Both the position numbers and the translations under genes were made by a program. Of a stretch of DNA of 64,000 nt, positions 4,030 to 56,577 are shown one piece after another. The DNA comes from an uncultured Gammaproteobacteria bacterium (GTDB lineage: Bacteria; Patescibacteriota; Microgenomatia; UBA1406; GWC2-37-13), in contig CAZAJT010000001.1 in assembly GCA_964485585.1 (NCBI GenBank), positions 150 to 64,149 on the forward strand. Direction: 5' to 3'. Position 1 is the first letter of the stretch; every line of letters starts with the position of its first letter. The notes beneath the pieces were generated by a model that saw only the letters and a list, made by a program, of their open reading frames with translations, made no database searches and was not told where the DNA came from.

Positions 4030-4896
4030 ATGAATATTCCAGTTAAGAAACTCCAAAACGGTTTTAGATTACCAGTTTTAGGATTTGGGACTTGGACAAT
4101 TGGTGGAAAGAGAGAAAAAGATACAACAAATGACGAAATTAATATTTTAGGTATAAAAAATGCAATAAATTCAGGATTAACTCATATTGATACCGCTGAA
4201 ATGTACGCTGCTGGGCATGCGGAAGAAATTGTTGGAATAGCCATAAAAGAATTTCCTAGAAAAAAGTTATTCATTACCACTAAAGTAGCACCTGATCATC
4301 TTAAATATGATGATTTATTTAGAGCTTGTGAGAATAGTTTGAAAAGGCTTCAAACTGACTATTTAGATTTGTATCTTATTCATTCTCCTAATGATGAAGT
4401 TCCAATTAATGAGACCATGAAGGCATTAAATAAATTAAAAGATCAGGGTTTGATTAAAAATATTGGTGTTAGTAATTTTAAAACTTCTAGATTAAAAAAA
4501 GCTCAGCAAACTTCAGTTAGTCCCATTGTTACCAATCAAGTTTTTTATAATTTGATTGTTCGTCAACCTGAAACTGATGGATTAATTGAATATTGCCAAA
4601 AAAATGATATTTTAATAACAGCATTTAGACCAGTTGATAGGGGTTTATTAACCCAATCTAATAATCAGATATTTGCCGAAATATGTAATAAATACCAAAA
4701 AACTCCTGCGCAAATGGCTATAAATTGGTTAATATCACAGGATAATGTCGTTACAATTTCGAAAATGAGTAATCGAAAACATTTAGAAGAAAATCTTAAA
4801 GCTTTAAATTGGAAAATGGAGCAAATTGATATTAAAAAGTTAAGAGATGAATTCCCCAATCAGCAAAAAGATACTTCTGAAACACCATTGAGATGA
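4030..4896 (+). CDS. aldo/keto reductase
   Basis: LGFGTW..G, HIDTAEMY, DYLDLYLIHSP and GVSNF are classic AKR signatures. Confidence 0.9.
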   Translation: MNIPVKKLQNGFRLPVLGFGTWTIGGKREKDTTNDEINILGIKNAINSGLTHIDTAEMYAAGHAEEIVGIAIKEFPRKKLFITTKVAPDHLKYDDLFRACENSLKRLQTDYLDLYLIHSPNDEVPINETMKALNKLKDQGLIKNIGVSNFKTSRLKKAQQTSVSPIVTNQVFYNLIVRQPETDGLIEYCQKNDILITAFRPVDRGLLTQSNNQIFAEICNKYQKTPAQMAINWLISQDNVVTISKMSNRKHLEENLKALNWKMEQIDIKKLRDEFPNQQKDTSETPLR

Positions 4897-4915
4897 GAAG
4901 GCTCAATACAAAAGG

Positions 4916-4996
4916 TCACATAACCTATTCAGCTGGTCTGGACTAGAAAGCGAGATGATAGAACAATCCATCAGGAGACCTTTAACGGGAATTGGC
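4916..4996 (+). repeat. attC-like repeat R5, strongly degenerate (last of the array)
   Basis: TCACATAACCTATTCAGCTGGTCTGGACTAG aligns, with indels, to the left half of R1-R4. The right end AACGGGAATTGGCG is only a remnant of ACGGTTGGAAC. Confidence 0.35.
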
Positions 4997-5055
4997 GTAA
5001 TGACAATTAAGGTTCTCATGTCTAACTCTTCATTACAATCTGCTATCATAAGAAT

Positions 5056-5640
5056 ATGTCTCAGAGTAAATGGTGGAGTTTGTATCTGATAGCAGGTCTT
5101 GTTATTCTATCATTGCAGTCGTACATCGCATTTCCTCGCAGTCCTCTTCTTTTATTGCAAGATTTGATAATACCATCTGTAATAGTGATAACTTCTATTT
5201 TTGTCCTATTTAAACCAAAAGCACTCAATCTACTCTTCATTGGACTTTTATACATGTTTTTAACAATGATCTTTTTGTTCGTCGACTCAAAAATGAAACC
5301 TTATGGAACAGCAACGTTTTTGTTCGGGACGTGGCTTCTAGTTGATTATGTAAATTTAAAAAAGTTTAACCAAAGCATCGTAACCAATATGGTAAATCCT
5401 CAGTCAAAGATAGGAAAGGGAGTGTTTTTCTCAACATTCATATTTGGGTTGATCACTGAGTATACTAATCTTCCATTTGAAATTTGGACATATAATATTC
5501 CTCTGCCTTCACTTACCAACTTCGGAATTCCTGCTCTCATTGCTGCATTTGGATGGACTCCTTGGACGCTCTCAATCTTATCGATCTTTTACTATTTTAT
5601 TTTGAACGAACAAAAAATGACTCAGTCGAATACTAAATAA
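5056..5640 (+). CDS. hypothetical polytopic membrane protein
   Basis: A 194-aa ORF with about 6 hydrophobic segments. No domain recognised. Confidence 0.55.
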   Translation: MSQSKWWSLYLIAGLVILSLQSYIAFPRSPLLLLQDLIIPSVIVITSIFVLFKPKALNLLFIGLLYMFLTMIFLFVDSKMKPYGTATFLFGTWLLVDYVNLKKFNQSIVTNMVNPQSKIGKGVFFSTFIFGLITEYTNLPFEIWTYNIPLPSLTNFGIPALIAAFGWTPWTLSILSIFYYFILNEQKMTQSNTK

Positions 5641-5667
5641 GACTGTAGTTACGCATATGAATAAATT

Positions 5668-6042
5668 ATGGAAGAAACGAAAAATGTTACCGGTTTGGAT
5701 ATAGAGCTCATTAAGAAACTATTGACTGGTGATTTTACCGGAATTCCCATTGATCAGCTAAAACAGGTGTTTTCTCCCACCTTTGCCGCAGAAGCAGTCC
5801 ATACCTTAGCAAAAGAGCTGAGAAACGATAATTTTGGCAATGCCGCTCATCTCTATATCAGAGAAAGACAGGGAGGTAAATCTCCAGCACAGATTTTCGC
5901 CCTGATGAATGGCGGGCAGCTTCCAGAGCTTGATTTCGCAACTTCAATCAAAGGGGTTGGTCTCCAATATGCACGCGGCTCACTCTTCATGGCTTACGAG
6001 GAAGCCTATCAACGTTATCTTCTCTCAACGAAACTCAAATAA
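5668..6042 (+). CDS. hypothetical protein
   Basis: A 124-aa ORF 27 nt downstream of the previous gene. No recognisable motif. Confidence 0.45.
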   Translation: MEETKNVTGLDIELIKKLLTGDFTGIPIDQLKQVFSPTFAAEAVHTLAKELRNDNFGNAAHLYIRERQGGKSPAQIFALMNGGQLPELDFATSIKGVGLQYARGSLFMAYEEAYQRYLLSTKLK

Positions 6043-6074
6043 TAATCGTCTTTTTTTGCTACTATTAATACAGT

Positions 6075-7136
6075 ATGACTTTGACAGAGATGTCCTATTA
6101 TAGTAGAAGGCTGCTGCCCTTTGCCATTATCGGTGTTCTCGTATTTCTGATCTTTTATTATGCAATTCAGGTATTTTTTCTCTACATAGAGAGTCAGAAG
6201 CCCAAGCAGATCCTTATTGAGGATGAATTTGGAAAAATCAAAAGACCGATAGTTAAGAATGCTTTCACGGGAACTAATTTTACCTACACTCTTGATACCG
6301 TAGAAGGTCAACCCATAACCGCAACCGACAGCGCGCAGGTATTCTTCTTTCCCCCATCAACCGCGCGATTTGGATTTCGAGATAAAATCTACGTAGTGGC
6401 AAAGACACTCGGATTTAATACCGAGCTTACCAAGCATACACTTGATGGTACCCAAGCAATTTTTACCGAGCCAAACCAACGACTTTCCATAGATATCACC
6501 AATTTTAATTTTACGTACGAATATGAAATCGCGCAGGATGAAGACGTACTCAAAAACACTACTATTCCGCGGCCAGAAGATATCGAGGAGAAAGCGATGG
6601 ATTTCTTACGTACCATAAGTCGATATCCTGAAGAACTCGCAAAAGGAAAGCTCAACATTATTTATCATGTGTATGATAGAGAAAATAATCGACTGACTTC
6701 TACGTCACGACCTCAGGATGCGAATGTAGTTGAGGTAGATTTTTACCGACCTGATATTGAGGCACAACCACAAAGTATTGCGGTAGTTGCACCAAAGTAC
6801 TTCAATAGTCAGAATTATGTCATTATGGTATTTGGCGAGAACGGGTTTAAGGTACTCAAAGCACAAGTACAATTTTTCGAGAAATCTGATGGTACTGTTG
6901 GAATCTATCCATTGAAAACCGGCGATCAGGCATATGAGGCGCTTCGCGCCGGAAAGGGAATTGTTGTTTCACGCGCAGAAAACGCTCCTACAAACATTAC
7001 TATCAAAAAGATGTTTTTAGGCTACTATGATCCAGATACGTATCAAGAATATCTTCAGCCGATATATGTATTTTTGGGAGAACACGAATTTGTAGGATAT
7101 GTACCGGCGGTAAGAGACGATTATGTCATAGAGTGA
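6075..7136 (+). CDS. hypothetical N-terminally membrane-anchored protein
   Basis: A 353-aa ORF with a single N-terminal TM segment (LLPFAIIGVLVFLIFYYAIQVFFLY). No domain recognised. Confidence 0.6.
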   Translation: MTLTEMSYYSRRLLPFAIIGVLVFLIFYYAIQVFFLYIESQKPKQILIEDEFGKIKRPIVKNAFTGTNFTYTLDTVEGQPITATDSAQVFFFPPSTARFGFRDKIYVVAKTLGFNTELTKHTLDGTQAIFTEPNQRLSIDITNFNFTYEYEIAQDEDVLKNTTIPRPEDIEEKAMDFLRTISRYPEELAKGKLNIIYHVYDRENNRLTSTSRPQDANVVEVDFYRPDIEAQPQSIAVVAPKYFNSQNYVIMVFGENGFKVLKAQVQFFEKSDGTVGIYPLKTGDQAYEALRAGKGIVVSRAENAPTNITIKKMFLGYYDPDTYQEYLQPIYVFLGEHEFVGYVPAVRDDYVIE

Positions 7137-24216: not shown

Positions 24217-25481
24217 AAGGGTTACTTTACCTGCTTGTTCTAATACTTCTGGCTGCTATTATTTGGATAGATTTTCCACAGGATAAAAAGATAGGACAAA
24301 AAGAAATTAAAACGCATCTCGGTCTTGATTTACAAGGTGGCAGCCATCTTCTTTTTGAAGCGGATATTTCAAAACTGTCTCCTCAAGATCGTGAAGAAGC
24401 ACTCAATTCCGCAAAAGATATTATAGAACGAAGGGTAAATTTTTTTGGGGTGTCTGAACCAACCGTTCAAACCATTACCGCTGGCAAAACATATAGAATT
24501 TCGGTAGATTTACCTGGAATTACGAATACCGATGAAGCGATTCAATTAATTGGACAGACCGCACAGTTAGAATTTGTTGAGGAGGCGACGGGTGACGCAC
24601 AGCTCGCTACCGCTCCGGCTTTGCTACGACTCACCAAACGGACTGGACTTACCGGCAAAGACGTAAAGAAAGCGGGCGTTTCTTTTGATAATCAGACAGG
24701 TGAACCGCAAGTAGGTTTGTCTTTTAGCTCTGAAGGCACAAAAAAATTTGCAGCTATCACCAGCAGAAATGTAGGAAAACAGGTGGGAATATTCATTGAT
24801 AATTTTCCTATTTCAGCGCCAGTAGTTGAGCAGCCGATTATCGGCGGTGACGCCGTGATTCGAGGAAAATTTACTATTGATGAAGCAAAAAAGCTTGCGA
24901 TTGCAATCAATAGCGGTGCTCTCCCGGTACCAATCAAACTCATTGAGCAAAGAAATATCGGGCCGACCTTAGGAGCAATAGAAGTGAAAAAAAGTGTGTA
25001 TGCGGGGATTGTGGGGCTTATCATGGTGATGTTATTTATGATTCTCTACTATAAAAAACTCGGCTTGGTTGCCTGCATCGCGCTTATTATTTACGGGTTA
25101 CTATCCCTTGCGATTTTTAAATCGATTCCCATTGTTTTGACATTACCGGGAGTAGCCGGATTTATTTTATCAATTGGTATGGCGGTTGACGCTAATATAC
25201 TCATTTTTGAACGGATCAAAGAAGAATTGCGCAAAGGAAGAGATTTTGATATTGCGCTCCGATTAGGTTTTGGGCGGGCAATTGATGCAATTAAAGACGC
25301 GAATATCACGACACTCCTTGTTGCATTTATTTTATTTAATCCGCTCAATTGGAATTTTCTTCCCCAATCTGGATTAGTACGGGGATTTGCATTGACACTT
25401 GCAATTGGAGTATTAATGAGTTTGTTCACGGGGATTTTTATAACAAGGAGACTTATTCGACTGGTTTATAAGGTTACTTAG
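24213..25481 (+). CDS. secD: protein translocase subunit SecD
   Basis: LGLDLQGG, IIERRVN.FGVSEP, GPTLG, and a C-terminal 6-TM domain with AVDANILIFERIKEE. Confidence 0.92.
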   Translation: MKGLLYLLVLILLAAIIWIDFPQDKKIGQKEIKTHLGLDLQGGSHLLFEADISKLSPQDREEALNSAKDIIERRVNFFGVSEPTVQTITAGKTYRISVDLPGITNTDEAIQLIGQTAQLEFVEEATGDAQLATAPALLRLTKRTGLTGKDVKKAGVSFDNQTGEPQVGLSFSSEGTKKFAAITSRNVGKQVGIFIDNFPISAPVVEQPIIGGDAVIRGKFTIDEAKKLAIAINSGALPVPIKLIEQRNIGPTLGAIEVKKSVYAGIVGLIMVMLFMILYYKKLGLVACIALIIYGLLSLAIFKSIPIVLTLPGVAGFILSIGMAVDANILIFERIKEELRKGRDFDIALRLGFGRAIDAIKDANITTLLVAFILFNPLNWNFLPQSGLVRGFALTLAIGVLMSLFTGIFITRRLIRLVYKVT

Positions 25482-25560
25482 TTAGTTGGTTACTTGGTTA
25501 GTTAGTCATAAGATTATTGATACTATCAAGTAACTAAGTAACTAAACAACTAACTAACCC
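25472..25560. repeat. GTTA-word imperfect hairpin between secD and secF
   Basis: The left arm is GGTTACTTAGTTAGTTGGTTACTTGGTTAGTTAGTC (it includes the secD stop) and the right arm is CAAGTAACTAAGTAACTAAACAACTAACTAACCC. About 80 percent of positions pair. Confidence 0.65.
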
Positions 25561-25571
25561 ATTAAAGACAT

Positions 25572-26442: not shown

Positions 26443-27057
26443 ATGCAAGTGTTTACATTCATTGTCGGCCAACTACAGACCAACTGTTATCTTTTGGTTG
26501 AACACAATGAATGTATGGTAATTGATCCCGGTGATGCTGCTGATTTTGTTACCGAACAAATTCAGAGAAGAAATCTTACCCTCCGAGCTCTCATTGCTAC
26601 TCATGGTCATTTTGACCATATCCTTGCCGCAGGAGAGATACAGTTAAGTTTTTCTATTCCTCTCTACATATTTAAAGAAGATTTGTTTTTGGTGCAAAGA
26701 CTAAATGAAACCGCTCAGCATTTTTTAGGATTCGATCCTCAGGCAATGCCTCCCCAGTCTACTGAGTGGTTAACAGGAGGATCGTTGACCATTGATGCGT
26801 TCACTTTTAAGGTTATTCTAACTCCGGGTCATACTCCCGGCAGCTGCTGTTTTTACTTTCCAAACGAGAAAACTATTTTTACCGGTGATACGTTATTTAA
26901 GCAAGGAATCGGCAGATATGATTTCTCCTACAGTGATGGTGCACAATTGCATAAGTCACTGAATACTCTCTTTTCATTGCCCGAAGAAACAAAGGTATAT
27001 TCGGGGCATGGCGCTGAAACAACAATAGGTGCAGAAAAACAGAGAAGATCGTTATGA
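26443..27057 (+). CDS. MBL-fold metallo-hydrolase (glyoxalase II-like)
   Basis: ATHGHFDHI (HxHxDH), TPGHTPG, and a GDTLF..G.GR pattern. Confidence 0.85.
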   Translation: MQVFTFIVGQLQTNCYLLVEHNECMVIDPGDAADFVTEQIQRRNLTLRALIATHGHFDHILAAGEIQLSFSIPLYIFKEDLFLVQRLNETAQHFLGFDPQAMPPQSTEWLTGGSLTIDAFTFKVILTPGHTPGSCCFYFPNEKTIFTGDTLFKQGIGRYDFSYSDGAQLHKSLNTLFSLPEETKVYSGHGAETTIGAEKQRRSL

Positions 27058-28398
27058 GGTTTTCTTTTGGGCAAGTTTTGCAAGCAACTCTTCTTTCTCA
27101 TTTGGTAGTTTTCCTTCGACAACTTGATCAAATAGTTCCTCAAGGATGTTTCCGATTTGCGGTCCCGGTTTGAGAGAAAGTGTTTTCATAACATCATGGC
27201 CATCTATCTTGAGATCCTTCACCGTAAATGGTTGTTTTTGTACTTCTTCGAGTCGTTTTTTAAAGAGCTCCAGTCGCCATGAAGTCTGTTTTGCTCCTGA
27301 GCCAATGCGATCACCTGTTCGTAAGTCCAGCATATCTTGTAGATATTCTTTAGTTACTTGACGGATAAAACGGCGCACTGCTTTATCTGTTTGTAGTTCT
27401 GAAACAGTGAATTGATGATAACGGATGAGCGTAAGCAGTTTATCTTTCTGCTTATTGGAAAGATGCAGTCTGTCAGCGATTTTTTCTGCCATCTGTGTTC
27501 CAACCACTTCATGGTTATGAAACGTAATAATACTGCTTGTTGGGTCTTTACGGTATGTTTTTGATTTGCCAATATCATGGAGAAGCGTGGCAAGGCGCGT
27601 TACCACGTCTTTTGACGGGCAATGTTTCAGTGACATCACTAAATGAGTTCCCACATCGTAGATATGATGTCTTTGGGGACTTTTTTGTTCAACGCTAAAA
27701 CATTCATCCAGTTCTGGAAGAATGTATTTTAAGAGTGTCGTGCTTCGTAAGAAAAACAGTGCGTCTGCTGCGTTAGCTAATGCGATCATCTTCAACAATT
27801 CATCACGAATTCGTTCCCATGCAATGTGAGTGACAAGATGAGCGTTTCTTTTAATAGTATCGAGCGTTTGTTCTTCAATAAGAAATCCCAGTTGTGCGGC
27901 AATGCGTATTGCTCGCAGAAGTCGAAGCGCGTCTTCCTGAAATCGTTTCTCAGGATCGCCGACTGTCACAATGAGTTTCGCCGTGAGATGCTTTTGTCCG
28001 TTGTAAGGGTCAATAATAGTATTTCCATCACACGCAATCGCGTTTATCGTAAAGTCTCTCCGGGCAAGGTCTTCTTCCAGCGTTTGTGCCCATTCGATCT
28101 TTTCCGGATGTCGAAGATCTTTGTATTCGCCTTCTTTCCGAAACGTTGTTACCTCAAAAATCTGTTTGTTTCCACCAACCTCAATTTCTATACCAACCGT
28201 ACCAAACTGATTATTGTAGAATCCATCCGGATAGAGTTTTAAAATCTCTTCAGGAGTAGCATTCGTAGTAAAATCCCAGTCATCAGTGGTGTTTGTGAGC
28301 AGTAAATCCCGTACGGCTCCACCAACCACATAGATTTGATAGCCGCTTTTCCGAAACGTATCCATGAATTGTTTCACCTCATCTGGTAATGTAAACAT
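27052..28398 (-). CDS. cca: CCA-adding tRNA nucleotidyltransferase with HD domain
   Basis: VVGGAVRDLLL..DWDF, RRDFTINA, and a C-terminal LLHDIGK HD motif. Confidence 0.88.
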   Translation of the reverse strand: MFTLPDEVKQFMDTFRKSGYQIYVVGGAVRDLLLTNTTDDWDFTTNATPEEILKLYPDGFYNNQFGTVGIEIEVGGNKQIFEVTTFRKEGEYKDLRHPEKIEWAQTLEEDLARRDFTINAIACDGNTIIDPYNGQKHLTAKLIVTVGDPEKRFQEDALRLLRAIRIAAQLGFLIEEQTLDTIKRNAHLVTHIAWERIRDELLKMIALANAADALFFLRSTTLLKYILPELDECFSVEQKSPQRHHIYDVGTHLVMSLKHCPSKDVVTRLATLLHDIGKSKTYRKDPTSSIITFHNHEVVGTQMAEKIADRLHLSNKQKDKLLTLIRYHQFTVSELQTDKAVRRFIRQVTKEYLQDMLDLRTGDRIGSGAKQTSWRLELFKKRLEEVQKQPFTVKDLKIDGHDVMKTLSLKPGPQIGNILEELFDQVVEGKLPNEKEELLAKLAQKKTS

Positions 28399-28465
28399 TG
28401 GTACTATTATAACGTATATGGGGAGAGTTATGAGTTGGGGTATAATGGATGAGAAAGTTCTTATT

Positions 28466-28984
28466 ATGCAAAAAACTTACGCTTTTATTGATAGTCAGAA
28501 TGTAAACTTAGGTATCCGCTCCCTAGGGTGGAAACTTGATTGGCGTAAGTTCAGACAGTATCTACGGAATAAATATGAAGTGGACAAGGTATATCTTTTT
28601 ATTGGTCAAGTAGCTGGAAATGAATCTTTATATGCCTTTTTGCAAGAGTGTGGGTATATTTTAATCTTCAAACCAACTTTATATCAAAGAAAAAAAGACA
28701 AAACTATTATCAAAGGAAATGTAGATGCTGAATTAGTTCTTCATACTATGATTCAATACAAAAATTATCATAAAGCAATTATTGTTACAGGAGATGGCGA
28801 TTTCCATTGCTTAATTGAGTATTTAGACAAAAAAGGTAAATTGCTTAAAGTTCTGGCCCCAACTAAACACTACTCCAGCTTGTTGCGTAAATTTAACCAG
28901 AAACATTATATTGTGCGTATCGACTTATTAAGAGATTCTTTAGAACAAAAAAAGACTGGCATTCGCGGTCGGTCGAAACCTTAG
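28466..28984 (+). CDS. NYN/LabA-like domain protein
   Basis: AFIDSQNVNLG.., GNVDAELVL, IIVTGDGDFHCL. The start is uncertain (ATG 28445 or 28466); the longer track ORF overlaps cca. Confidence 0.7.
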   Translation: MQKTYAFIDSQNVNLGIRSLGWKLDWRKFRQYLRNKYEVDKVYLFIGQVAGNESLYAFLQECGYILIFKPTLYQRKKDKTIIKGNVDAELVLHTMIQYKNYHKAIIVTGDGDFHCLIEYLDKKGKLLKVLAPTKHYSSLLRKFNQKHYIVRIDLLRDSLEQKKTGIRGRSKP

Positions 28985-29241: not shown

Positions 29242-29270
29242 TTTGCATAATTTTATAATCCTGGTACAAT
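29242..29270 (+). promoter_or_regulatory. sigma70-type promoter (extended -10) of the T-box leader
   Basis: TTGCAT (29242-29247), a 17-nt spacer, then TGG-TACAAT (29262-29270). Confidence 0.6.
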
Positions 29271-29276
29271 AATTCT

Positions 29277-29505
29277 ACAATTCGGGATAAAGCGTGACAG
29301 TTTGGTTTCCCGCCAAACGATCCTTCGGTAATCTGGGAGGAACGCTGTGTACGATGAGTACGACGGAAAGACACCGTAGAAATGAATCCAAGGTGTGTCG
29401 GCGAAAAGTCGGAGCACTGATAAGAAGCAAGCAAGGTGGTACCACGAGAGACCTCGTCCTTGTTAAACAGCATACGATGCTGTTTGGCAAAGGCGAGGTT
29501 TTTTT
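29277..29505 (+). promoter_or_regulatory. T-box-type transcription-attenuation leader
   Basis: AAGCAAGGTGGTACCACG (29429-29446) matches the T-box consensus AAnnnGGGUGGnACCGCG in 12 of 14 conserved positions. The antiterminator is CAAGG[TGGTACC]ACGAG-AGAC-CTCGTCCTTG. A competing long terminator stem (29451-29499) is followed by T7. GATGAG (29353-29358) is K-turn-like. Confidence 0.65.
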
Positions 29506-29507
29506 AT

Positions 29508-30536
29508 ATGAAATTCATATCGGTTGAATCGCTGACTCAACTATTGCAGCATCATGGATTTGAAAATTACCTGAGGGATCTTATGAGGGTTTTGAAGCAT
29601 GATTTTGGTCGTTGGCAGTCATTTATTAAGATGCCTCGTCCGGCTATGCATGTTCCTGGCGGCGTACTAGAATTAATGCCAATCTGCGATAATGAGCGGT
29701 ATTACACCTTCAAATACGTCAACTGCCACCCAAAAAATCCACTCATTGGACAACAAACAGTTGTTGCTACCGGACAATTATCACGCATTGATACCGGGTA
29801 TCCGCTGATGTTTTCCGAGATGACGGTACTGACGGCGCTTCGTACTGCTGCAACATCGGCGCTCATTACTGACTTAATGGCGCGTAAGGATGCTCACGTG
29901 TTAGCACTTATTGGTACTGGTGCTCAAAGTGAATTTCAAGTGCGTGGATTACAACTTGTGCGTGATATTAGAGAGGTTCGGTATTTTGATATTGACCCGA
30001 AAGCTATGGATAAGTTTGAAGGTAATATGATAAATCAATCAATAAAACTGGCGCGGTGTGAAAATGCTAAAGAAGCAACGATTGGAGCAAATATTATAAC
30101 TGTTTGCACCGCTTGTAAAGCTCATGTTGATGTGATTAAAAATGAATGGGTCACTGCTGGAGTCCACATAAATGCTCTGGGCGGAGATACTGTTGGTAAA
30201 ACAGAACTGGAATTAAGTATTTTACCACGTTGTCGTATTGTTGTAGAATATTTTGAACAGTCTTTTATTGAAGGAGAAACACAACGATTAAGCAGAGAAA
30301 TGGCAGAAAAGCTCGTGTACGCGCAAGCGCAAGAATTAGTAAACGGCTCGAAAAAAGGTCGCGAAAACGACGAAGAAATAACACTATTCGATTCTGTTGG
30401 TATTGCATTAGAAGACTACTCTGCTTTAAGACTCACCTATGAGCTTGCAGAAAAGTACAGAATAGGTGATGAATATAATTTCACTCCTGTTCTCAAAGAT
30501 CCGAAAAACCTAATATCAGTAGTGAGCTCAGTGTAA
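29508..30536 (+). CDS. ocd: ornithine cyclodeaminase (ornithine -> proline)
   Basis: It has strong by-eye similarity to characterised OCD: DFGRWQSF.K, ELMP..D...YTFKYVN.HP.N, LTALRTAATSA, GTGAQSEFQ, NALGGD..GKTEL, FDSVGIALED. The start is taken at ATG 29508, after the leader terminator. Confidence 0.85.
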   Translation: MKFISVESLTQLLQHHGFENYLRDLMRVLKHDFGRWQSFIKMPRPAMHVPGGVLELMPICDNERYYTFKYVNCHPKNPLIGQQTVVATGQLSRIDTGYPLMFSEMTVLTALRTAATSALITDLMARKDAHVLALIGTGAQSEFQVRGLQLVRDIREVRYFDIDPKAMDKFEGNMINQSIKLARCENAKEATIGANIITVCTACKAHVDVIKNEWVTAGVHINALGGDTVGKTELELSILPRCRIVVEYFEQSFIEGETQRLSREMAEKLVYAQAQELVNGSKKGRENDEEITLFDSVGIALEDYSALRLTYELAEKYRIGDEYNFTPVLKDPKNLISVVSSV

Positions 30537-54976: not shown

Positions 54977-54995
54977 GTTTATTTCTGTATTGACT

Positions 54996-55095
54996 GTTAC
55001 TTAGTTAGTTGGTTATTTGGTTATTTAGTTACTTGGTACATTCAAACGATGATGCTAACTAACCAAGTAACCAATTAATTAATTAATTAACTAAC
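54996..55095. repeat. GTTA-word imperfect hairpin, second copy of the 25472 family
   Basis: GTTACTTAGTTAGTTGGTTATTTGGTTATTTAGTTACTTGGTAC .. CTAACTAACCAAGTAACCAATTAATTAATTAATTAACTAAC. The first 33 nt differ at only 3 positions from 25474-25506. Confidence 0.65.
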
Positions 55096-55098
55096 TGC

Positions 55099-56577
55099 TC
55101 AGACCTTCTCAGTAACCTTATAAGTAATTTTTTTTCCCAGTAATAATCTGGTATGCGCTTCAAGAGCAGGGAGGGAGGATAAGACAAATGAGACGAGCGG
55201 TAAAAGGTACCACTGAATTATTAGAAAAGGAATACTTACCGGGTTTGTTTTGACCGCGACTTTTTTTCTAAGTTGTATATCAAGATAAATGTAAAGAATA
55301 AGCATCAATGATGCGGTAGTCAATATAAATCCAGAGAGTTGCGGAAGAAGAAAACCCAGCACGGTTCGTTTGAAAACAGGATTTACCAGAGGAGGTATCA
55401 ATGCGCTTAAGGTAAGGATAAAAAATGACGTTGGCCAGAGCAGATGGGTCTCGGCGAGAAACGCCATTTTTTTAAGCTTTGACAAAAAAGGAATATGAGG
55501 AGTATTAAAAAGTTTCCCCCAAGTATACCCAATGTCGCTTGCACCCCATGCCCATCGTTTTTCTTGTTCATATCTATTTTTCAATGTCTTAATAATATTT
55601 CCCGAATAGACGGCGTCGCCATTTATAATCGTATAGAGCGGTAAAGTTTTCACTTTGTCACCAAAAGTAAAAAACGCTTGATAATATATGTGCCAGTCCT
55701 CAGGAATAACATCAACATCCCAATATCCAACCTGTTTAAGAAGCCATAGATTTGTTGAGTATGTCGATATATGGATTAGTTTTTCTTTTTGAGATAAAAA
55801 TGCCAGTCGCAATAATGATGAAAGAGTGGCCTGCATACGAACAAAAAAGGGGAGCCGCCAAAAGTTGTTATAAAGTAGTACTGGCGCCCAGTAAAAATGG
55901 TAGCTGCGGTCCCTATCTTTTAAAAATTCATACGTAAGATAGGAGAAGTAATTTTTCGAAAATATGCTATCCGCGTCACAGATAGTAATAAGAACATGCT
56001 TGAATTCTAAACTTCTTTCTACTGCGTATTGTTCAACCATCCTTACCGCATTTGTTTGATTGCTTGCTTTTCCGGGCACTTCATTCGTTTTCAGAACATG
56101 ATAAGAAGAGATGATGTCTTTGAAATGATCACGGTATTTTAATCGCAACTGTTCATCTTTTTCTTTTGCTTCTGCTTCTCTCATCTCAAACGCGAGGACA
56201 AGAACGAGATTTTTAAATGGATAATCACTTTGAATAATTGCCTCAATAGTAGATTCAAGCTTATGAAGAGGTTCTTTGTAATTGGGGATGACTATAAAGT
56301 GATAAATATCTCTGCTCTTGGTCTTCTGCAGCAATTTTTTATGATAAGGGATTTTCCCATACGAAAGTATCTGAAGATATGAAATTGTAGCATAATAGGC
56401 GGTACCGACGGATTTGTATAAAAAATACAGATCGAAACATATAATAAAATATGCGACTACTGCTGGATGAAATGGAGAAAGCCACAAAGGAAGCGTAATA
56501 AGAAGCCACGTGAGAATCGGAATGCCCACTTCACCTATCTTAAGAAAAAAACGCGATGTAGCCAATCGATCAGTCAT
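55099..56577 (-). CDS. membrane-embedded processive GT2 glycosyltransferase (cellulose/chitin-synthase-like)
   Basis: The DxD motif (ICDADS), the Q-x-x-RW motif (YEQEKRWAWGA), and flanking TM segments. Confidence 0.6.
   Translation of the reverse strand: MTDRLATSRFFLKIGEVGIPILTWLLITLPLWLSPFHPAVVAYFIICFDLYFLYKSVGTAYYATISYLQILSYGKIPYHKKLLQKTKSRDIYHFIVIPNYKEPLHKLESTIEAIIQSDYPFKNLVLVLAFEMREAEAKEKDEQLRLKYRDHFKDIISSYHVLKTNEVPGKASNQTNAVRMVEQYAVERSLEFKHVLITICDADSIFSKNYFSYLTYEFLKDRDRSYHFYWAPVLLYNNFWRLPFFVRMQATLSSLLRLAFLSQKEKLIHISTYSTNLWLLKQVGYWDVDVIPEDWHIYYQAFFTFGDKVKTLPLYTIINGDAVYSGNIIKTLKNRYEQEKRWAWGASDIGYTWGKLFNTPHIPFLSKLKKMAFLAETHLLWPTSFFILTLSALIPPLVNPVFKRTVLGFLLPQLSGFILTTASLMLILYIYLDIQLRKKVAVKTNPVSIPFLIIQWYLLPLVSFVLSSLPALEAHTRLLLGKKITYKVTEKV

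Follow-up and report, generated by a model that had tools for sequence, protein, structure and literature searches.

A probable proline-tRNA-sensing T-box riboswitch of reduced architecture upstream of ocd in a Microgenomates-type bacterium

The leader of the ornithine cyclodeaminase gene ocd was analysed in a window of 64 kb (64,000 nt, the whole stretch of DNA under study) from contig CAZAJT010000001.1, assembly GCA_964485585.1. We consider it highly likely that positions 29277–29507 form the ocd mRNA leader and act as a proline-specific T-box riboswitch of reduced architecture. Judged from the sequence, the leader is very probably a proline-tRNA-sensing T-box, in a stripped-down form common to Microgenomates-type bacteria resembling the candidate phyla radiation (CPR). 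The evidence consists of the T-box elements and their covariation, a match between codon and regulated gene, a match between T-box bulge and tRNA discriminator base, and conserved hairpins that exclude each other. A T-box upstream of ocd, with Pro as the expected specificity, had been proposed in a preliminary description of this DNA, and the core, the covariation and the two matches bear it out.

All core elements were found where that description had placed them (Table 1): the T-box sequence, an antiterminator carrying the UGGUACC bulge, and a terminator that overlaps it and runs into seven U's. In a search with relaxed filters, the Rfam T-box model RF00230 matched 29429–29461 (model positions 183–216 of 219) with 24.9 bits, an E value of 0.0011 on a 411-nt region and a posterior of ~1. 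The RF00230 match that had been looked for was thus obtained, for the 3′ part only and below the gathering score of 93; at gathering scores, Rfam gave no match anywhere in the 64-kb window. The terminator has 22 pairs and one mismatch, close to the 21 bp first noted. It shares 29451–29462 with the antiterminator, that is, two loop bases of helix A2 and the 3′ strands of A2 and A1. The minimum free energy (MFE) of 29428–29510, in the terminator fold, was −38.1 kcal/mol, versus −9.4 kcal/mol for the antiterminator. The leader as a whole folded with −80.6 kcal/mol (z = −4.3 versus shuffles).

We collected 26 related leaders (L numbers below), from contigs mostly labelled as Microgenomates, which have a covariation-supported 5′ decoding domain in common. 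Every one of the 25 leaders possessing a T-box core retained helix A1, the bulge and helix A2. In the same 25 leaders, a hairpin of −20 to −39 kcal/mol captures the 3′ strands of A1 and A2 and is followed by 5–8 U's. Four leaders had T-runs inside the terminator loops, and their terminators were assigned separately from the automatic detection. The antiterminator/terminator alternative is therefore conserved in orthologous leaders, a point on which the preliminary description had let its proposal depend.

The ocd start codon (ATG 29508) stands 2 nt past the U-run, and the preliminary description saw no Shine-Dalgarno (SD) sequence before it. This was a fair reading: GAGGU (29495–29499) is present, but the genome hardly uses SD sequences. 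A switch that acts wholly or partly on translation, with the terminator hairpin as a sequestrator of GAGGU, is unlikely, although it keeps some weight. The hairpin stops 9 nt short of the ATG, its formation base-pairs GAGGU whereas the antiterminator fold leaves these bases free, and the tight spacing between hairpin and ATG recurs in L004, L005 and L016. Furthermore, the T-boxes with a short Stem I known so far, those of actinobacterial ileS, are translational. However, an SD-like motif preceded 5 of the 46 long open reading frames (ORFs) of the window, versus 14% at random positions, and the GAGG is dictated by the conserved antiterminator sequence CCUCG, to which it is complementary. Dual control, with GAGGU as an SD hidden by the terminator, was rejected because SD-like motifs occur no more often than expected by chance and the antiterminator forces the GAGG. 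The 5–8 U's also come right after the hairpin in every core-bearing leader. The start codon lies 12–27 nt past the U-run in L001, L011, L014 and L015, and ~25–70 nt past it in L002, L003, L006, L007, L009, L010 and L022, where the hairpin cannot occlude it. In the latter relatives the hairpin is thus no sequestrator of a ribosome-binding site, and the leader class is best read as transcriptional.

The 5′ decoding domain was defined from the conserved AAAGCG to the AUAAG motif. A genome scan with the Ocd protein gave 73 loci, 13 of them with GGTGGTACC at 70–134 nt upstream of ocd and two more with GGTGGTATC. A covariance model (R1) of 18 relatives, made with the window left out, matched 29289–29424 over its full length with 80.1 bits (E = 6.6e-15), the sole match in the 64 kb. 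With R1, three more leaders came to light, L018, L025 and, on L010, a second leader; the model gave no match at ocd loci labelled Saccharibacteria, Nomurabacteria or Paceibacterota. Seven relatives aligned to all 219 positions of RF00230, with 31–53 bits (gathering score 93). We also scanned metagenomes with the pseudoknot motif ACGGAR-N4-6-ACCGTAAAA; nearly all of the at least 120 matches were due to chance. Real leaders among the matches listed were L141, L142, L169, L174, L176 and L177, four of which precede genes other than ocd.

The basal helix P1 of the domain encloses the specifier hairpin and hairpin B, forming a three-way junction. Of 69 cells for the three core pairs of P1, 68 were canonical, and AGC/GCU was replaced by UGC/GCA, GGC/GCC or UAC/GUA. 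In Stem II, the four closing pairs were canonical in 95 of 95 cells, with 4–6 pair types per position; the loop is GAUGA in the window, versus GAA...AGUA in the consensus S-turn Stem II. Helix IIA of the pseudoknot changed from ACGG/CCGU to ACAC/GUGU and ACAG/CUGU (98% canonical). Its partner IIB was 94% canonical versus 57% with shuffled partners, and none of 2000 shuffles reached as high a value. Helix D has a near-invariant U-G, G-A, U-G motif and an apical extension with a GAAAA loop, and its lower stem covaries (GUG/CAC, GCG/CGC, GUA/UAC, AUG/CAU and AUA/UAU). This helix is not in the Rfam T-box consensus and appeared as an unmodelled insert in the RF00230 alignment.

RNAalifold, unaided, recovered the Stem I hairpin, Stem IIA and helix D, each with compensatory changes. 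In an alignment of the leaders (A3), the five nested helices paired in 94.3% of cells, versus 74.5% when shuffled and 29–38% when slid by 1–3 columns. Of the 25 pairs, 20 changed on both sides, and 0 of 500 shuffles matched the observed values on any measure. A register-anchored count over 24 leaders gave standard pairs in 99% for P1, 98% for the Stem I hairpin, 100% for Stem II and 82% for helix D; the fields were parsed by hand, which makes the hairpin-stem counts circular in part, and P1, IIB and helix D were counted on fixed registers. The pseudoknot was counted in the register-anchored way because MAFFT splits its columns between 7-nt and 8-nt loops.

The Rfam alignment of L011, the best relative with 52.7 bits, places these helices within the T-box consensus. 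Here, AAUGCGUUGAAAGGG...CCCUGGAGC fell on the Stem I base and the kink-turn (K-turn) consensus, the second hairpin on Stem II, and ACGG...CCGUAA on IIA and the F-box (CCGUUA). A 6-nt loop replaced 74 distal Stem I positions of the model. Together with the 6-bp hairpin of the window, this agrees with the earlier remark that Stem I looks much shorter than in Firmicutes. The K-turn-like motif once seen in GAUGAG (29353–29358) did not survive the mapping: these bases are the Stem II loop, and the K-turn consensus lies at the Stem I base. In that region, UGAG...GA of the relatives fits the consensus; the window reads ACAG...GA there, and its non-bulged strand carries an inserted hairpin.

The apical loop of the Stem I hairpin, UUUCCCG, contains the triplet CCC (29309–29311), followed by the purine G 29312. 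In the 19 ocd leaders with a readable loop and in a proS leader, the loop holds CCC, CCG, CCU or CCA (Pro) and then a purine. The triplet is CGC-A (Arg) in the leader of an unknown ORF and ornithine carbamoyltransferase (argF operon), CAC-G (His) in the tRNA-His-hisG-hisD leader, and UGG-A (Trp) in the leader of a tRNA-Trp and a TrpB-like gene. The ocd leader L016 is 5′-truncated and has no readable loop; the proB-proA leader L177 has the 5′ domain, with a Stem I loop that could not be parsed and was left unscored. Since the loop triplet follows the downstream gene across four amino acids, we identify CCC 29309–29311 as the specifier. The third-position C fits the 'C rule' (PMC7583486). The specifier is thus a Pro codon, as expected in the preliminary description, at a different place from the triplets proposed there.

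The variation of this loop also bears on whether the 5′ domain (29289–29424) is a separate small-molecule riboswitch, for example for proline or ornithine, in tandem with a minimal T-box discriminator. Such an arrangement would account for L008 and L017, which have the 5′ domain and a terminator-like hairpin with no T-box core. It would also suit the first hairpin and U-run that many relatives carry besides the T-box terminator, and helix D, which lies outside the T-box consensus. We regard it as very improbable, because the alignment to RF00230 places the domain on Stem I, Stem II and IIA/F-box, and because the apical loop varies with the amino acid of the downstream genes, the remainder being constant. 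Moreover, a discriminator cannot choose a tRNA without a specifier domain, and the leader has no other candidate for one. The small-molecule reading was rejected on the ground that the loop follows amino-acid identity.

Still less credible is a specifier at AUG 29382–29384, UCC 29387–29389 or CCA 29388–29390 in an internal loop after the supposed GAUGAG K-turn, as first suggested: GAA-AUG-A and GAA-UCC-A do resemble the canonical GAA-NNN-A context, but the bases 29382–29390 are those between Stem IIA and the IIB 3′ strand, the linker reads AAAAAUAAA, AAAAUAC or AAAAGAC in relatives controlling the same gene, UCC gives way to GAC, AAC, UGC or CGC as the IIA loop changes (pseudoknot covariation), and AUG (Met) or UCC (Ser) would not suit ocd. 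Covariation and the Rfam mapping rule out these triplets together with the K-turn, and UCC is the IIB 3′ strand, which covaries with the IIA loop.

The T-box bulge gave an independent match, to the tRNA discriminator base. UGGU complements A73 of two CPR tRNA-Pro(CGG) genes, which fits the pairing with a tRNA ACCA end put forward earlier. In other leaders, the bulge UGGC complements G73 of the tRNA-Trp directly after its leader, and UGGG complements C73 of the tRNA-His after its leader.

Taken together, these features point to a leader that would bind tRNA, sense its charge and terminate transcription. The anticodon of tRNA-Pro would bind the Stem I apical loop. If the tRNA is uncharged, its 3′ ACCA would pair with UGGU (29437–29440) and stabilise the weak antiterminator, which would block the 22-bp terminator and let RNA polymerase read into ocd. 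Ocd is expected to convert ornithine to proline, so a shortage of proline would turn on its own remedy. Charged tRNA-Pro would leave the antiterminator unstabilised, and transcription would halt at the U-run.

Several observations weigh against a proline-specific T-box at this place. The RF00230 score is under the gathering threshold (24.9 versus 93 bits). The distal tRNA-elbow platform of Stem I is missing in the window, whose Stem I consists of 6 bp and a 7-nt apical loop. Between helix D and the antiterminator of the window we found no Stem III of the form 5′-RRRxG-Stem III-AA. The window IIB is weak, with two pairs and one A-C mismatch, and the K-turn is degenerate, with C and not G at position 1b. 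The examined CPR tRNA-Pro has the anticodon CGG, versus the codon CCC of the window. No tRNA genes were found within the 64-kb window, so that no tRNA-Pro(GGG) with A73 was seen for this genome. In L008 (2957–3000) and L017 (1375–1416) the 5′ domain is followed by a terminator-like hairpin only and then by the ATG, so the domain can persist without the discriminator.

Table 1 Features of the ocd leader and its gene in the window.
Feature	Position	Strand	Basis
−35 box TTGCAT	29243–29248	+	Part of sigma-70-type promoter
Extended −10 TGgTACAAT	29262–29270	+	Part of sigma-70-type promoter
Whole 5′ decoding (predicted tRNA anticodon-binding) domain	29289–29424	+	Covariance model R1, 80.1 bits
P1, Stem I basal helix AGCGU/ACGCU	29291–29295 with 29342–29346	+	Covariation; Rfam mapping of L011
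Short Stem I hairpin GUUUGG-UUUCCCG-CCAAAC, 6 bp	29300–29318, loop 29306–29312	+	RNAalifold, compensatory changes
Hairpin B (UCCUUC, GGUAAUCUG, GGAGGA), optional insert	29321–29341	+	MFE fold
Stem II hairpin UGUAC-GAUGA-GUACG	29348–29362, loop 29353–29357	+	Covariation; Rfam mapping of L011
Stem IIA/B pseudoknot with F-box	29363–29389	+	Covariation; Rfam mapping of L011
IIA helix ACGG/CCGU	29363–29366 with 29374–29377	+	
F-box-like CCGUAG	29374–29379	+	
IIB, loop bases with UCC	29369–29371 with 29387–29389	+	
Helix D GUGUGUC/GGAGCAC	29393–29417 (29393–29399 with 29411–29417)	+	RNAalifold; covariation
Purine-rich linker GAUAAGAAGCAAG	29419–29431	+	No Stem III hairpin
T-box sequence AAGCAAGGUGGUACCACG	29429–29446	+	Read from sequence; RF00230 match
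Antiterminator	29432–29462	+	RF00230 positions 183–216; structure alone −9.4 kcal/mol
Antiterminator helix A1 CAAGG/CCUUG	29432–29436 with 29458–29462	+	
T-box bulge UGGUACC, 7 nt	29437–29443	+	
Antiterminator helix A2 ACGAG/CUCGU, loop AGAC	29444–29448 with 29453–29457	+	
Intrinsic terminator	29451–29505	+	29451–29473 pairs with 29477–29499, loop ACG, U-run 29499–29505
ocd, ornithine cyclodeaminase, 342 aa, regulated gene	29508–30536	+	Pfam PF02423, 285 bits; NCBIfam equivalog NF005762

The promoter was found where the preliminary description had put it. A promoter scan gave 9 of 12 matches plus the TG extension; the spacer from the −35 box to TACAAT is 16 nt, or 17 nt with the −35 box taken as TTTGCA, the choice of the scan. 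Transcription would start near 29277. Sister leaders had TTGACA...TATAAT-like boxes at an equal distance 5′ of the AAAGCG anchor. The regulated gene was rightly named as ornithine cyclodeaminase, with 415 bits against NF005762 (cutoff 350). The nearest relatives of the protein were 79–82% identical, and the named ones belonged mostly to CPR groups (e.g., Levybacteria, Roizmanbacteria and Gottesmanbacteria).

Just 5′ of the T-box, the window encodes a CCA-adding enzyme (27052–28398, − strand) and a NYN-domain protein (28364–28984, + strand). The named relatives of the CCA-adding enzyme were Roizmanbacteria and Microgenomates. The CPR affiliation of the relatives of this enzyme and of Ocd indicates that the window comes from a Microgenomates-type CPR bacterium. 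The examined CPR tRNA-Pro genes do not encode the CCA, and the tRNA 3′ end read by the T-box thus depends on the CCA-adding enzyme. The closeness of its gene to the T-box is probably coincidental.

Some metagenome-assembled genomes (MAGs) with related leaders were labelled otherwise: L003, L004, L008, L010, L017 and L018 as Gammaproteobacteria or Pseudomonadales, L007 as Methylomirabilota and L014 as Sulfotelmatobacter. Their ocd genes and T-box leaders were nearly identical to those on Levybacteria, Woesebacteria or Gottesmanbacteria contigs, and the non-CPR labels of these MAG records may be wrong.

The leaders varied in their inserts. Hairpin B lies between the Stem I hairpin and the P1 3′ strand. 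A similar module, roughly YUUCRRUAAAYUCAGR, occupies this site in L005, L006, L009 and L010; in L017 it sits within Stem II or at its tip. About half of the leaders lack it. In L002, L026 and L141, Stem II is capped by a second module, GAGAAAUCY...GGAAUWA. The linker after AUAAG measures 10 nt in the window and 9–10 nt in L006, L011 and L015; in other leaders it measures 23–71 nt and contains a Stem III hairpin.

Within the Stem III of most sister leaders lies a GC-rich hairpin (T1) with 5–8 U's after it, 5′ of the T-box core. This was seen in L002–L005, L009 (2843–2905), L010, L014, L018, L022, L026, L142, L169, L174 and L176, which therefore have two terminator-like elements in series, an arrangement not present in the window. 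The 5′ arm of T1 often showed complementarity to one strand of helix D (GUGUGUC or GGAGCA). We considered a switch of T1 against helix D and discarded it, as no logic consistent with tRNA-induced read-through was found. The embedded hairpin may be a remnant, or it may serve as a pause site or first checkpoint; a programmed pause or first checkpoint at the hairpin and its U-tract could give the tRNA time to bind.

Two leaders precede tRNA genes. The leader L010:4111–4350 is followed by tRNA-His (4487–4559), hisG (4594–5232) and hisD (5229–6521), and the leader L169:535–800 by tRNA-Trp (813–886). Since these operons open with the cognate tRNA gene, uncharged tRNA would induce the transcription of its own gene. 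We know of no tRNA genes among T-box targets.

Tentatively, the leaders could be grouped as an undescribed T-box subclass of Microgenomates-type Patescibacteria, which would combine transcriptional control without elbow contact, helix D, the hairpin embedded in Stem III (in most members) and operons that begin with a tRNA gene. The combination as a whole is possible, with the odds somewhat against it.

A different conserved leader precedes ocd, together with tRNA-Pro(CGG), in L030:2025–2345 (labelled Saccharibacteria) and L044:2701–3010 (Patescibacteria group). Its hairpin, CCGGCU-CCUAUUUAGCA-GCCGG, differs between the loci by one compensatory change, and a terminator-like GGCCCC...GGGGCUUUCUUUUU is present as well. 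This leader matched neither the Rfam T-box model nor R1, and may be a separate proline-responsive leader.

Many ORFs of the window have a TATAAT-like box 6–12 nt before the ATG (e.g., + strand ATGs at 4030, 33964 and 35917), which suggests that leaderless mRNAs, or mRNAs with very short leaders, are widespread in this genome. On the Patescibacteria contig L044 (1–689), the 16S rRNA 3′ end aligned as GGAAUAAUUCAAUU versus the bacterial consensus GAUCACCUCCUUU, and the anti-SD sequence appears to be missing from this rRNA. Weak matches to a plant microRNA precursor model, with 39.7 and 37.7 bits on the two strands (gathering score 99), were obtained for 54987–55104 (both strands) and 25464–25569 of the window. 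They indicate a long near-perfect palindromic hairpin, not microRNAs.

In the literature searched, we found no paper that treats T-boxes together with CPR, Patescibacteria or Microgenomates. The window leader belongs to a broader subclass of Microgenomates-type CPR-like bacteria that appears to be undescribed. The leaders described here would extend the range of T-boxes to CPR/Patescibacteria. In TBDB, class I leaders were gathered with RF00230, and the class II model was run only on Actinobacteria. This standard detection, with RF00230 at its gathering score and class II limited to Actinobacteria, would miss the present leaders. For CPR genomes with poor annotation, the apical-loop triplet would give a simple rule to predict which amino acid a regulated operon responds to, and ocd is indicated as the regulated step of proline synthesis in these reduced genomes. 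Transcriptional T-boxes are held to depend on the fast, two-point capture of tRNA that a long Stem I provides, and a terminator-type T-box without the platform would be a natural test of how a tRNA is caught fast enough while the RNA is being made.

Compared with the class I transcriptional T-boxes (RF00230; B. subtilis tyrS, proBA and proI), the window leader has the same T-box sequence, 7-nt UGGNACC bulge and helices A1 and A2, the same overlapping intrinsic terminator with a U-run, and a purine after the codon. The two also agree in the Stem I base consensus (AAAGCG...GAGCU), in Stem II and in IIA/B with the F-box. Pro-specific T-boxes are known on proBA and proI in Bacillus, and their logic is that of the ocd leader: uncharged tRNA-Pro induces proline synthesis. 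In contrast to class I, 74 distal Stem I model positions are gone in the window, and with them the specifier internal loop, AG bulge and distal loop; the codon is in the apical loop, helix D is added and Stem III is missing. Stem III normally buttresses the discriminator (PMC7583486). The target differs as well, and no report of ocd as a T-box target was found in the literature searched.

Apical-loop specifiers in short Stem I's have been described (PMC7583486), and they are known only in the short-Stem-I, translational T-boxes of actinobacterial ileS (PMC7583486, PMC11297988). The latter (M. tuberculosis, M. smegmatis and N. farcinica; 'class II' in TBDB), compared here by published description, share with the CPR class the apical-loop specifier, the short Stem I, the lack of an elbow platform, and a decoding domain made of Stem I, Stem II and the IIA/B pseudoknot (PMC7583486, PMC11297988). 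They differ from it in that the SD is hidden and regulation is translational, with no terminator, whereas the CPR class has a strong hairpin and U-run, often far from the start codon. The actinobacterial class has also been described on ileS alone, whereas the CPR class precedes Pro, Arg, His and Trp genes and has helix D.

The minimal T-boxes of the glyQS type are, like the window leader, transcriptional and have lost parts of the standard architecture. However, glyQS keeps the long Stem I and platform without Stem II and IIA/B (PMC7583486), and the window leader shows the opposite reduction. Transcriptional T-boxes generally require a long Stem I (PMC7583486), a requirement to which the CPR class is an apparent exception. 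A T-box with an apical-loop specifier that ends in an intrinsic terminator is a new combination within a known kind of T-box.

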